Made by a program: the position numbers and the translations under genes
Assembly (NCBI GenBank): GCA_016188705.1
Contig: JACPHH010000016.1
Location: 21,690 to 85,689 of the forward strand
Length of the DNA stretch: 64,000 nucleotides
From: Candidatus Peregrinibacteria bacterium
GTDB taxonomy: Bacteria > Patescibacteriota > Gracilibacteria > UBA1369 > JACRIC01
Reading direction: 5' to 3'
In this document: positions 14,194 to 39,809 of the stretch, one piece after another
How positions within the stretch are numbered: position 1 is the first letter of the stretch
Layout of the letters: the number at the start of each line of letters is the position of its first letter
Notes under the pieces: model-generated
Told to the model about the DNA's origin: nothing
The model's input: the letters and a program-made list of their open reading frames with translations, nothing else
Database searches by the model: none

Positions 14194-14307
14194 ATCGATA
14201 TTTTTTTACGCTCTATATAAATCTACCTTACATTCATGAGCATACTAAATTTCGAAAGAGAAAATGTCAACGAAAGCAATAGGAGTTGTTCACCGCTTTT
14301 GTTGAAG

Positions 14308-14527
14308 CATACTCTTTTTCTTTTGAATACATATGCTGGCAGGCGGAAGTTCGGAGCGAGTTACTCAGGCTGGTTTTCAAAAAGAGGCGAAAATGAGCGT
14401 TAAAAAATGTGTAGCCGATAGCATTTTTAGCGAATTTTCGTCCTTTTTGATCCAGCCGAGTATCCGAGCGACGAGCCCCCGCCTCCCAGCATATGTACTT
14501 TTTTTCAAAGGAAAAAGCGTATGATCC
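14308..14527 (+). mobile_element. MITE-like palindromic element, copy 1
   Basis: Near-identical core to 24093-24317 (inverted) and 39596-39809. It has ~35 bp imperfect terminal inverted repeats and is flanked on both sides by TTTTGTTGAAG (14297-14307 and 14529-14539). Confidence 0.7.
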
Positions 14528-22165: not shown

Positions 22166-22203
22166 TAAGGAACCTCTGAAAAACACAATTCAGAGGGTCA
22201 TTA
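22166..22203. repeat. motif-A inverted pair forming a hairpin immediately after the rny stop
   Basis: Plus strand reads TTAAGGAACCTCTGAAAAACACAATTCAGAGGGTC. The stem is CCTCTGAA/TTCAGAGG, 8 bp (22174-22197). The minus strand reads TAAGACCCTCTGAA from the rny stop codon. Confidence 0.6.
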
Positions 22204-23727
22204 GCTCGCAAATTCTTCGACTCGGGTTTCTCTCACGACTTCTACTTTAATTTGACCAGGATAGACAAGGTCTGTTTCAATCTTTTTAGCTATATTATGA
22301 GCGAGTTTAAAAGCCTCCAAATCATCAATTTTCTCAGGTTCCACAAAAATACGAACTTCTCTTCCTGCTTGAATGGCATAAGCTCGTTTCACTCCATCAA
22401 ATGAACTTGCGACATTTTCCAATTCTTCCAAACGTTTAATAAAATTATCCAAATTATCTTGGGTAGCGCCCGGTCTCGCATTAGAAATAATATTCGCGGC
22501 CTGCACAATTTTCGCCTCGATACTCTCAGGCTCAATCTCATCATGATGCGCTTCCACGCAATGAATAATCTCTTTCGATATGCCAAATTTTTTCAAAATA
22601 TCACGTCCAATAGCAGCATGCGGCCCTTGAATTTCATGATCAACCGCTTTTCCGATATCATGCAAAAGACCGGCGCGGCGGCATATATTTACATCAGCGC
22701 CGAGTTCCGAAGCAAGTGAAGCCGCTAAAAATGAAACTTCCATAGAATGCTTCAAAACATTCTGTCCAAAGCTCACGCGAAATTTCAATCTTCCTAAAAG
22801 TTTTACAAGATTCGGATGAAAACCTGCGACGCCTGTATCATAAACGGCTTTTTCGCCCCATTCCTGAATAAGAATATTCACCTCTTCTTTGGTTTTTTCT
22901 ACGGTTTCCTCAATGCGTGCCGGATGAATACGCCCATCTGTAAGCAGCTTTTCAAGCGCCACTTTGGCAATATAACGTCTCACAAGATCAAAACCTGAAA
23001 TAACAATGGATCCAGGAGTATCATCAACAATCACGTCAATACCTGTAATCTGCTCAAAAGTATTAATATTTCGACCTTCTCTTCCGATAATACGACCTTT
23101 CATTTCATCACCAGGAAGCGTCACGATTGTTGCCGTTGTTTCCTGAGCCGTTTCAGCGGCATATTTTTGAATAGCCTCGGCAATAATATTTTTCGCGCGA
23201 TCCTTCGCTTCCTCTTGAACTTCTTGTTCCGCTTTTTTCATATGCTGTAAAATCTCACGCTTCGACTCTTCTTCCACCTTTTTTATAAGAAGCTGTTTAG
23301 CATCTTCTTTAGAAAGAGCGGCAATTTCTTCCAACTGATGTTTTTGAACATCAACCATATCCTGCACCTGCGCTTTTAATTGTTTAACCGATTCGACTTT
23401 TTTCTCAAGTTCTTCGCGCTGTTTTTCACTTTCTTCAATTTTTTTATCAAGCGTTTCTTCCTTTTTCACCAAACGCTCTTCCATGACGCTCAACTGCCGA
23501 CGGCGTTCAATTTCTTCACGCTTTGCGTCCTCCTGAATTTTAAGAGCCTCATTTTTGGCTTCCAAAAACATTTCTTTTGATTTGGCATTTGCTTCCTGCA
23601 AAATGCGACGATGTTCTTCTTCCAATTCTTCTCGACGTTTTTTAAGAACTCCGGTGCGGATAAAATATCCCGCCACCGAACCGCTTGCAAGCGCCGCAAG
23701 AATAAGAATGATTGTAAGAGTATCCAT
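22201..23727 (-). CDS. rny: ribonuclease Y
   Basis: 508 aa. N-terminal TM helix, a long coiled coil, a KH domain (GRIIGREGRNI) and an HD domain (LLHDIGKA...EAHH). Confidence 0.95.
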   Translation of the reverse strand: MDTLTIILILAALASGSVAGYFIRTGVLKKRREELEEEHRRILQEANAKSKEMFLEAKNEALKIQEDAKREEIERRRQLSVMEERLVKKEETLDKKIEESEKQREELEKKVESVKQLKAQVQDMVDVQKHQLEEIAALSKEDAKQLLIKKVEEESKREILQHMKKAEQEVQEEAKDRAKNIIAEAIQKYAAETAQETTATIVTLPGDEMKGRIIGREGRNINTFEQITGIDVIVDDTPGSIVISGFDLVRRYIAKVALEKLLTDGRIHPARIEETVEKTKEEVNILIQEWGEKAVYDTGVAGFHPNLVKLLGRLKFRVSFGQNVLKHSMEVSFLAASLASELGADVNICRRAGLLHDIGKAVDHEIQGPHAAIGRDILKKFGISKEIIHCVEAHHDEIEPESIEAKIVQAANIISNARPGATQDNLDNFIKRLEELENVASSFDGVKRAYAIQAGREVRIFVEPEKIDDLEAFKLAHNIAKKIETDLVYPGQIKVEVVRETRVEEFAS

Positions 23728-23995
23728 AAAAAAAACGTAAGGGGTTTATCCTTCGTTTTATAGCTTTTTTGACACATGTATCCCCTGAGGTTTCAGGACA
23801 GCGATGAACACCAAAGGAAAAAAATAATCCGAAATAAAAGAAGAGGAATACAAAATGACCTCGTAAATAAAAGCTAAAAAAACGTAAAGATCGACCATAA
23901 GATTAAAGGAGAAATAAAAAAATGTCAATCAGCAATAATTCGGCTACAAATAAAGAAAAAAACATAATTTCTTCAGTTATTTTAGCTTCAAAAAC

Positions 23996-24032
23996 GGATC
24001 ATGCGCATATTACTTTGAAAAAAAGTATGATC
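23996..24032. mobile_element. 37-bp internally deleted derivative (two termini only) of the MITE-like element
   Basis: GGATCATGCGCATATTACTTTGAAAAAAAGTATGATCC is the left terminus joined to the right terminus of the family. It is flanked by AAAAAC on both sides. Confidence 0.55.
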
Positions 24033-24092
24033 CAAAAACCATTTGATTTGCATTTTAGATTTTTTTTAAAAATTTTTGAAATAGTAAAATAT

Positions 24093-24317
24093 GGATCATA
24101 CGCTTTTTCCTTTGAAAAAAAATACATATCGCTGGGAGGCGGGGGCTCGTCCCTCGGATACTCGGCTGGATCAAAAAGGACGAAAATTCGCTAAAAATGC
24201 TATCGGCTACACATTTTTTAACGCTCATTTTCGCCTCTTTTTGAAAACCAGCCTGCGTAACTCGCTCCGAACCCCCGTCTCCCAGCATATGTTTTCAAAG
24301 AAATTTGCGTATGATCC
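24093..24317 (-). mobile_element. MITE-like palindromic element, copy 2 (inverted relative to copies 1 and 3)
   Basis: The reverse complement aligns end to end with 14308-14527 and 39596-39809. Termini are GGATCATACGC...GCGTATGATCC. Flanks GTAAAAT / GTAAAAAT are imperfect direct repeats. Confidence 0.7.
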
Positions 24318-24361
24318 GTAAAAATCTAAATAGATCCTAATTTTATTTACATTTCAAGAAA

Positions 24362-25498
24362 ATGAATTCTAAAAACTTATCCATAACTCTTAAACACATT
24401 TTTCAAAAATTCTTGAGTATTATTTTTATCATTTTCACTGTGTTTTTTTTGTCGTATTACAAAAATGCAGTACTCAAAACATCCGCGATTGTTCATCAAA
24501 GGTACATCGTAAAAAAAAATACGCATATTTTAAAAAACATCACTCCTAAAAACAACATACCTGAAAAAACCAATCCTAAAACAGAAAAAAAAAAAAAATA
24601 ATCATAAAAAAAAAACAACAACAAAAAATCCACAAAAAAAAAAAATACAAAGAAAAAAAACAACAACAAATCGAAAACTCAAAAAAAAACCACGCAAATA
24701 GCTAAAAATGGAGATCTTTCGAACAAAATTTTTATAACGGAAATTTTTCCAAATCCGCCAGGTCCGGACACAGAAGAAGAATGGATCGAACTTTTTAACG
24801 CGGGAGACACAAAAATATCTCTCGGAAACTGGACTCTCGACGACAGCGAAGGCGGAAGCAAACCATACTCTTTTCCATTTACTACCATCATAAAACCTCA
24901 GGAATATCTTGTTATTTCAAGAAATATCTCGAAAATAGCGCTTAACAATAATCAAGAAAGCGTGCGACTCTTCGACTTTAAAAAAAATACAATAAACGAA
25001 ATCGAATATGAAGAATCCAAAGAAAACGCTTCCTTTTCACGAATTCATATATCTTCAACGGATGAAATCTGGGAATGGACAAACGACATTACCAAAGGAA
25101 AAAAAAATCCACAGTACGAAATATTTACGGGAAATATCCAACAATTTCAAAAAAACCCCTCAAATCCGGAACAAAACGAATTATTATTACAAACCAGTAT
25201 AGAAAAAATTGCGATATTTGTTTCCGACAGCATCGTTGAAACGGCTTTAGCGAAAACACTTTTCGTGCCGGAAACGAAAATAAAAATCATAGCGCAAGAA
25301 AAAAACCAAGGAAATTACGAATTAAAAAGCTTCGAAATACTCAAAAAAGCTCCTCCTCAAAAACAAAAAACGAGTACAGCCGCGACTCTTATAAAATGGA
25401 CTCTGCTTCTACTCGCAGGAGGAATATGTTTGAAAAAAATATGGTTTAAAAATAATCTTTGGGAAAAAATAAAAGCCTCTGTTATTTCAAAAAAATAA
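24362..25498 (+). pseudogene. TM-anchored Lys/Asn-rich linker plus lamin-tail-domain (LTD) protein, interrupted by two in-frame TAA codons
   Basis: ORF 24362..24601 (TM helix) and the LTD-coding segment (ITEIFPNPPGPDTEEEWIELFNAGDTKISLGNWTLDDSEGG...) are in the same frame. They are separated only by TAA at 24599 and TAA at 24605, inside A14/A10 tracts. The LTD part has no ATG/GTG/TTG start before 24962. Confidence 0.5.
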
Positions 25499-27804: not shown

Positions 27805-27861
27805 TCTGTTTTTCAGGATGTCCCTAGGCAGTGTTCACATAAAATTTTCAGAGGCTTCTTA
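27805..27861 (-). repeat. composite repeat after the ssb stop: motif A, motif B, motif A
   Basis: The minus strand reads TAAGAAGCCTCTGAAAATTTTATGTGAACACTGCCTAGGGACATCCTGAAAAACAG, starting at the ssb stop codon (27859-27861). Confidence 0.65.
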
Positions 27862-39595: not shown

Positions 39596-39809
39596 GGATC
39601 ATACGCAAATTTCTTTGAAAACATATGCTGGAAGGCGGGGGTTTAGGCAGGCTGGTTTTCAAAAAGAGGCGAAAATGAGCGTTAAAAAATGCGTAGCCGA
39701 TAGCATTTTTAGCGAATTTTCGTCCTTTTTGATCCAGCCGAGTATCCGAGCGACGAGCCCCCGCCTTCCAGCACATGTACTTTTTTTCAAAGGAAAAAGC
39801 GTATGATCC
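39596..39809 (+). mobile_element. MITE-like palindromic element, copy 3
   Basis: GGATCATACGC...GCGTATGATCC termini. A perfect 8-bp direct repeat, TTTATTAA, abuts both ends (39588-39595 and 39810-39817). It carries a ~10-nt internal deletion relative to copies 1 and 2. Confidence 0.75.

Follow-up and report, generated by a model that had tools for sequence, protein, structure and literature searches.

The DNA analysed here, referred to as the window, is a stretch of 64,000 nucleotides and corresponds to positions 21690-85689 of contig C22 in the 1.37 Mb draft genome of an uncultured Peregrinibacteria bacterium, with 35 contigs and 39% G+C. The locus under study is situated between two genes. 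The left neighbour is the divergent gene rny (RNase Y; 22201-23727, minus strand; Pfam RNase_Y_N, KH and HD). The right neighbour is a lamin-tail-domain (LTD) surface-protein gene (24362-25498, plus strand), whose LTD domain was matched by Pfam on 24701-25495 with an E value of 4.7e-18. Two units of one repeat family lie between these genes. The larger is a full-length copy of 225 nt at 24093-24317 (plus strand), which forms a single long hairpin and has its left end at 24093-24120 and its right end at 24290-24317. This copy was found to be 91-97% complementary to the other copies in the window, copy 1 (14304-14527, minus strand; mutated right tip, flanks AACAAAAT / AACAAAAG) and copy 3 (39596-39809, minus strand; perfect 8-bp duplication TTAATAAA), and it is inverted relative to both, in accordance with the original prediction. 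The smaller unit, hereafter the stump, occupies 23996-24033 (plus strand) and reads GGATCATGCGCATATTACTTTGAAAAAAAGTATGATCC, which is 38 letters. It had been described as a 37-nt unit ending at 24032 and made of both termini only; its derivation from the termini was retained and both ends are represented, but the length is one nucleotide greater and the unit joins one whole 32-nt end to a 9-nt tip of the other instead of two whole ends.

The stump is bordered by the hexamer AAAAAC to the left (23990-23995) and to the right (24034-24039), as had been noticed earlier; flanks that agree at 6/6 positions with this spacing are found at a frequency of 7e-4 of the genome positions. The AT-rich spacer 24034-24092, which begins with the right hexamer, separates the stump from the full copy; it is unique in the genome and no repeat-family match to it was found elsewhere in the genome. 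The last 9 nt of its remaining part (24040-24092) are GTAAAATAT and those following the full copy are GTAAAAATC (24318-24326). These flanks agree at 5/8 positions in strict register and are a decayed target duplication, of which the former is the left and the latter the right member. The predicted placement of the adjacent pair between rny and the LTD gene was correct, while both distances were one nucleotide too long: the spacing of the units is 59 nt and not sixty, and the full copy ends 44 nt and not 45 nt before the ATG at 24362.

The comparison with related genomes gave the next information on the locus. The gene order rny-LTD-trxB is kept in a genome of the same family (G002) and in a genome of the same order (G009), with rny-LTD spacers of 228 and 376 bp respectively, and the element ends were absent from both spacers. 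The corresponding spacer here is 634 bp, consisting of 371 bp and 263 bp of element DNA, and the 371 bp lie within the range of the relatives. This comparison fits a lineage-specific insertion, at the level of spacer length and content, the relatives being too distant for base-by-base alignment. The frame of the LTD gene was observed to be broken by TAA at 24599 within an A14 run (window 24585-24610), with the LTD domain following from about 24701, whereas the LTD relatives are single proteins of 576-764 aa; this break may represent a pseudogene, a homopolymer assembly error or a slippage-prone tract. The ORFs called across 23922-24321 are spurious, which should be considered by annotators.

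The distribution of the repeat in the genome was analysed by blastn using the 225-mer as query. The search revealed 67 loci, with a total of 9.4 kb, on 29 of the 35 contigs. Eighteen loci were at least 205 nt long, 15 were at contig ends and the remainder were truncated or internally deleted, partial and deleted copies making up about half of all loci. The pairwise identity of the copies had a median of 94% and reached 99-100% for the best pairs. The 11-nt tip GGATCATRCGC, for which a genome-wide search had been proposed, occurred exactly 46 times compared to 1-3 times in shuffled genomes, and the spacing of facing tips clustered at 106-108 nt and 206-232 nt. The terminal inverted repeats GGATCATACGC...GCGTATGATCC reach about 28 nt with a variable 7-nt spacer, giving an end module of GGATCATRCRM, seven variable bases (N7) and then TTTGAAAA. 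Perfect 8-bp target duplications were present in 13 of the 26 two-ended copies and 7/8 matches in two more, while mismatched left/right pairings used as the null gave 0/650 at 8/8 and 0.6% at 7/8; the duplicated 8-mers are 81% A+T. The copies avoid genes, as ORFs of 120 aa or more take up 85% of the genome but contain only 11% of the element bases, and 2/67 loci lie inside a long ORF. The mobility proposed in the original prediction was supported by these duplications, by the avoidance of genes and by the ends, which are of the type of ISL3 insertion sequences (IS), as described below.

The family is a MITE, a small non-coding non-autonomous repeat, on account of its size (below about 500 bp), its lack of coding capacity, its terminal inverted repeats, its duplications of a fixed 8 bp and its multiple dispersed intergenic copies. 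Pfam analysis of the ORFs crossing the units gave no family above noise, and one of the six reading frames of the element is open, which is not beyond chance. A Rickettsia-type in-frame palindromic element (RPE-like) was also considered and rejected, the sum of 225 and 8 (233) not being divisible by 3 and only 2/67 loci being in a long ORF. A Dam-methylation switch was suggested by the GATC in both tips but was discarded, as a D12-class methylase was not found in the assembly. The alignment of 38 copies separated two subfamilies: subfamily A with ends ACGCTTTTTCC and stem GGGAGGCGGGGGCTC, and subfamily B with ends GCGCATATTAC and stem GGCAGGCAAGAGTTC, having matching changes in the opposite arm.

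Two further observations on repeats were made in the same genome. Short additional pieces of the tips, 10-20 nt of GGATCATACG or GCGTATGAT, adjoin full copies at C33:46371-46390, at C19:9877-9893 and in the region of C29:67557, a sign that existing ends, or sites beside them, may have been hit more than once. The genome also contains at least 12 near-full copies of a second repeat family, about 233 nt in length; one member is nested in a MITE copy at C31:73754-73988, where the outer MITE retains AATTTTTT as its duplication. The terminal sequence of the nested element, ...GAACACTGCCTA, is the reverse complement of TAG-GCAGTGTTC; this motif, which is also present at window 27828-27841, is probably the tip of the 233-nt family.

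The folding of the 225-mer was calculated for both strands. Either strand gave one long hairpin, with energies of -99.7 and -115 kcal/mol (z scores of -11.3 and -12.6), and this stability was reached by 0/200 shuffles. The hairpin contains 78 pairs; among 18 copies, 97.7% of the pair cells were standard and both-sided changes were seen in 11 pairs. This very stable and well-kept fold, together with its location in a divergent promoter region, would be expected if the element served first of all as a structured RNA or as a REP-like regulator of rny or the LTD gene, with its spread being secondary. The pair pattern is not read as proof of selection, since arm-to-arm conversion in a palindrome would give the same co-variation, and the IS-type ends with the 8-bp duplications account for the spread. 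The Rfam search of the element gave no family, the consensus scans of the element for promoters and terminators were at or below shuffle level, by which donation of a promoter or terminator by the element was also rejected, and the orthologous spacers of the relatives carry no element. The core was further absent from 40 related genomes and from three genomes sharing the ends. A primary role as RNA or regulator is thus very unlikely.

The parent of the MITE was sought through its ends. A stretch of 129-141 nt, 100% identical in all cases and ending in GGATCATGCAATTTTTGGTTTGAAAAAA, is present at four contig ends (C31, C34, C35, C20), and this IS left end contains the ORF start MNEHELLWDILPDGLNEYFELE. 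The inverted counterpart was found at C18:1-139, with GGATCATGCAATAAATAGTTTGAAAAAA on the other strand as the matching IS right end. It encodes the last 31 residues (...SFNAKLKGFRALVRGVRDINFFLFRVSTFYA) of a transposase, matching positions 297-327 of NF049917 (ISAon1 family transposase) with an E value of 6.6e-10; Pfam gave no match for the 22-aa and 31-aa transposase fragments, which are very short. A six-frame search of 400 phylum genomes with the 31-aa piece revealed homologues of 68-87% identity in 8 genomes and one weak match of 45%, several of the homologues lying in open frames of 330 aa. In two scanned genomes the homologues (81% and 80% identity) belong to proteins of 311 and 328 aa, which matched DDE_Tnp_ISL3 with E values of 1e-48 and 4e-47 and the ISAon1 downstream ORF with E values of 5.5e-138 and 1e-121. 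A complete two-ORF IS was identified at locus L013; it has the inverted ends GGCTCATACGCAATATAGGG, and its upstream ORF matched NF049916 with an E value of 2.3e-25. Further IS copies end in GGATCATACGCAATA.

The alignment of all ends revealed that the MITE ends match the ends of the IS encoding the DDE_Tnp_ISL3 / ISAon1 transposase, and the parent of the MITE would accordingly be an ISL3-type (DDE) IS of the ISAon1 group. The 8-bp target duplication is typical of ISL3-type IS. The IS ends of the genome itself (GCAAT...) differ at several positions from the MITE ends (ACGC...). The four identical left ends and the one right end at contig ends point to a putative autonomous partner in the same genome, and no complete IS or intact transposase gene was found in the assembled genome, with no full match to PF01610 or NF049917. 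The exact IS tip gave 0 matches in the genome contigs and 0 in the metagenome contigs, and the MITE core likewise gave 0 matches in the metagenome contigs; in the public collections only a degenerate pattern of the end was successful. Every contig end caused by a repeat carries about 139-141 nt of that repeat, which applies to C31, C34, C35, C20, C18, the 15 MITE ends and also the ends in the genomes JACRID01 and CAYHVY01. This common length suggests that the IS copies were collapsed at the largest k-mer of the assembler and that the short contig carrying the IS did not enter the bin. The IS and some MITE copies are under-counted in these MAGs because the contig-end repeat stubs look like the largest k-mer. 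A weak match to the ISAon1 upstream-ORF model (E value 0.06, one stop codon) was observed at C15:8960-9175, about 1.6 kb from a MITE copy, and may be a decayed orfA remnant.

The same ends were found in other Peregrinibacteria. An IS right end (GGATCATACGCAAATTACTTTGAATAAAAGATTGAC...) next to a transposase C-terminus is present at six contig ends of the Peregrinibacteria MAG JACRID01. This right end (GGATCATACGCAAATTACTTTGAA) is homologous to that of the IS of the present genome, and 23 of its first 24 nt are the same as in the MITE right end. A 'left-type' contig-end repeat of JACRID01 was considered as the left end of its IS but was rejected, being a 294-nt MITE. Exact matches to the 27-nt left end of the MITE are numerous in JACRID01 and in the Peribacteria MAG CAYHVY01, and CAZZPB01 has near-identical versions of it (93-96%). 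These shared ends bound elements with unrelated interiors, such as the 294-nt palindromic MITE (L068, G435 C57:7482-7775) and another of about 261 nt (L069, G437 C67). The 225-nt core was absent from JACRID01, CAYHVY01 and CAZZPB01, as from the 40 related genomes searched. The conserved and functional part is therefore the end module, and the core is private to this genome. New MITE families have arisen repeatedly from a single IS lineage.

The structure of the stump was then compared with both subfamilies. Its nucleotides 1-32 show 32/32 identity to the subfamily-B left end GGATCATGCGCATATTACTTTGAAAAAAAGTA, as at C5:10448 and C35:20024. The right part is only the last 9 nt, the tip GTATGATCC, and overlaps the left part by GTA. 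This overlap sits in a longer imperfect direct repeat, whose two members are GAAAAAAAGTA (left end) and GAAAAAAGCGTA (subfamily-B right end), and about 190 nt of palindrome between the repeats are missing from the stump. A chance resemblance in AT-rich low-complexity DNA, in which AAAAAC would belong to the A-rich background, could draw on the A/T-rich region and on a duplication of only 6 bp. The complete identity to the subfamily-B end with the opposite 9-nt tip, the 46 occurrences of the tip 11-mer against about 2 in shuffles and the low frequency of the 6/6 flank match leave practically nothing of this explanation. The reversed control is in accordance, with 0 matches in five genomes compared to 5 real matches in this genome for the pattern 'end ... 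tip' within 70 nt. The low-complexity condition under which the original prediction would have failed was excluded by these results.

The stump belongs to subfamily B and its neighbour to subfamily A; therefore, the two units are independent insertions, 59 nt apart. The original prediction had argued for repeated independent insertion or deletion events, of which two independent insertions are present, and the evidence favours an insertion followed by a deletion in place for the shorter unit. The best reading of the stump is the insertion of a full copy and its later deletion in place. The flanks of the stump match over 6 bp and at only 3/8 positions in strict 8-bp register, the left flank in this register being TCAAAAAC. 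An 8-bp duplication (TCAAAAAC or AAAAACCA) reduced by 2 nt at one junction would give exactly the observed flanks, so that an extra loss of 2 nt must be assumed for a match of 6 bp and not 8.

The events at the locus can be arranged as follows, with a probability of about 0.7 for the whole reading of a MITE with ISAon1/ISL3-type ends that is mobilised in trans and of a stump that arose from a separate subfamily-B insertion losing its interior in place. The transposase of the IS, acting in trans, would recognise the ends of the MITE of about 28 nt. Insertion of the MITE would take place in intergenic, AT-rich DNA through a staggered cut of 8 bp, which would yield the 8-bp target duplications. 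A subfamily-B copy would have been inserted separately, 59 nt from the place of the subfamily-A copy, and its palindromic interior of about 190 nt would then have been lost in place. This loss would likely have occurred by slipped-strand or microhomology-mediated deletion between the A-run-containing repeats GAAAAAAAGTA and GAAAAAAGCGTA, and the long hairpin would promote such a deletion. The remainder would be one complete putative transposase-binding end, the 9-nt right tip and the duplication minus 2 nt, or a duplication that was originally of 6 bp. The order of insertion before deletion is likewise what we infer.

The pattern search, extended to other genomes, revealed four other stumps with perfect 8-bp duplications, in this genome and two others. 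Two are in the present genome, a 40-nt unit at C7:10101-10140 (junction overlap AT, duplication TACTCTTG) and a 63-nt unit at C17:13292-13354 (duplication GTTTTATA). The others are a 38-nt unit in JACRID01 (G435 C19; duplication GATAATCT) and a 50-nt unit in CAYHVY01 (G436 C59; duplication CTGATAGG). In the CAYHVY01 stump, 36 nt of the commonest contig-end repeat of that genome, whose start resembles the left end of the IS of the present genome, are joined directly to a 14-nt right tip. Every stump (38-63 nt) is single-copy with its own junction, and consists of one whole end and only 5-16 nt of the other. Two 43-nt end-plus-tip units in G009 (L059 and L063; C4:25322 and C9:37516), of which one is followed by tandem ACGAATT/ACGGATT heptamers, were considered as a multiplied stump; their flanks are also repeated, which makes them part of a larger repeat and uninformative on stump mobility.

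The deletion derivatives of about 107 nt gave similar information. They are present at three or four loci with almost the same junction and break at the same microhomology (GAAAATTCGC / GAAATTTGCG), with at least 2 junction sequences in two subfamilies. The copies at C33:51154 and C4:6606 have identical junctions at different sites with different duplications, while the junctions of a third copy at C13:164608 and of one from another subfamily at C13:61997 differ slightly but fall at the same microhomology. Recurrent deletion explains this class, too, and the pair C33:51154 and C4:6606 leaves some room for mobility of derivatives.

These derivatives bear on whether the 38-mer could itself be a minimal element competent for transposition, for which a full end and 6-14 nt of the opposite tip would suffice, and which would have arrived at 23996 by its own insertion. 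The stump does have its own flanking direct repeat, similar 38-63-nt units, each with a perfect 8-bp duplication, are found in three genomes, and the junction shared by C33:51154 and C4:6606 at different sites would be expected of a moving derivative. Deletion in place would equally retain a duplication, all the stumps are single-copy with differing junctions, and the slightly different junctions of C13:164608 and C13:61997 at one microhomology point to recurrent deletion. The right part of the 38-mer moreover is without the TTTGAAAA block, which is conserved in all the IS and MITE ends. Arrival of the 38-mer by its own insertion is therefore considered unlikely. An origin as a transposase-made footprint or abortive repair, by imprecise excision or by gap repair that was halted by the hairpin and completed by joining at microhomology, is judged improbable to the same degree. 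Its outcome would be the same as that of slippage, with the duplication kept, the interior lost and 2-3 nt of junction microhomology, and half of the family loci are partial. This route would require excision by this IS group, and the loss is asymmetric (32 nt against 9 nt), unlike the classic short footprints; the sequence itself does not separate the transposase route from replication slippage. The deletion in place of a separately inserted subfamily-B copy stays the preferred reading. It is unlikely, and slightly less probable than either of these alternatives, that the 38-63-nt units, which have one full ISAon1-type end and 6-16 nt of the opposite tip and occur in at least three Peregrinibacteria genomes, are a regular product of transposase chemistry or the smallest mobilisable form of the element. 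If true, the minimal substrate of an ISL3-type transposase would be one binding site and a cleavage tip.

The family was compared with known systems. Among ISAon1-group IS (NF049916, NF049917; DDE_Tnp_ISL3 PF01610; for example L013) the common end is GG(A/C)TCATACGC, which the MITE shares, and the 8-bp duplications of the MITE fit ISL3-type elements, while the L013 copy has no clear duplication. Unlike these IS, the MITE lacks a transposase, and its palindromic core is unrelated. Palindromic MITEs such as Chunjie of Geobacter, the QMITEs of Coxiella and the Correia elements of Neisseria resemble it in the whole-length hairpin, the high copy number in a small genome, the intergenic location and the internally deleted variants, and differ from it in their ends, in the length of the duplication and in the family of the partner IS. 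Of the documented cases, the 187-nt MITE of Microcystis aeruginosa PCC 7806 comes closest; it is linked to ISL3, and its connection to the transposase was, as here, deduced from matching ends (PMC11448079). Both elements are short and non-coding, form a stem-loop and have tens of mostly intergenic copies, 8-nt direct repeats and terminal repeats matching an ISL3-type IS of the same genome. The ends are GGATCATACGC here and GGCTCTTCG there, and the partner is of the two-ORF ISAon1 group here and a classic one-ORF ISL3 there. The host here is a CPR genome of 1.4 Mb, and many deletion derivatives down to 38 nt are present in it, which is a further difference from the Microcystis element.

The new points of the present analysis are the genome census, the parent IS group, the end module shared among Peregrinibacteria, the origin of the stump from a separate subfamily and the recurrence of stumps of 38-63 nt. 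The element is an ordinary kind of mobile DNA, and the current understanding of transposons is unchanged by it. Many contig breaks of the draft are explained, as 15 contig ends stop in the MITE and 5 in its IS; the start of contig C13 (positions 1-70) lies in the tandem repeat (CCCACTCCAAGTCCTGACACA)n, which is a further source of breaks in the assembly. For this CPR (Peregrinibacteria) genome, the repeat family gains a concrete putative parent in an ISL3-type IS of the ISAon1 group, and unrelated MITE cores have arisen with the same 27-nt end module in several genomes of the Peregrinibacteria. The deletion stumps together form a natural record of the decay of long palindromes in a streamlined genome.
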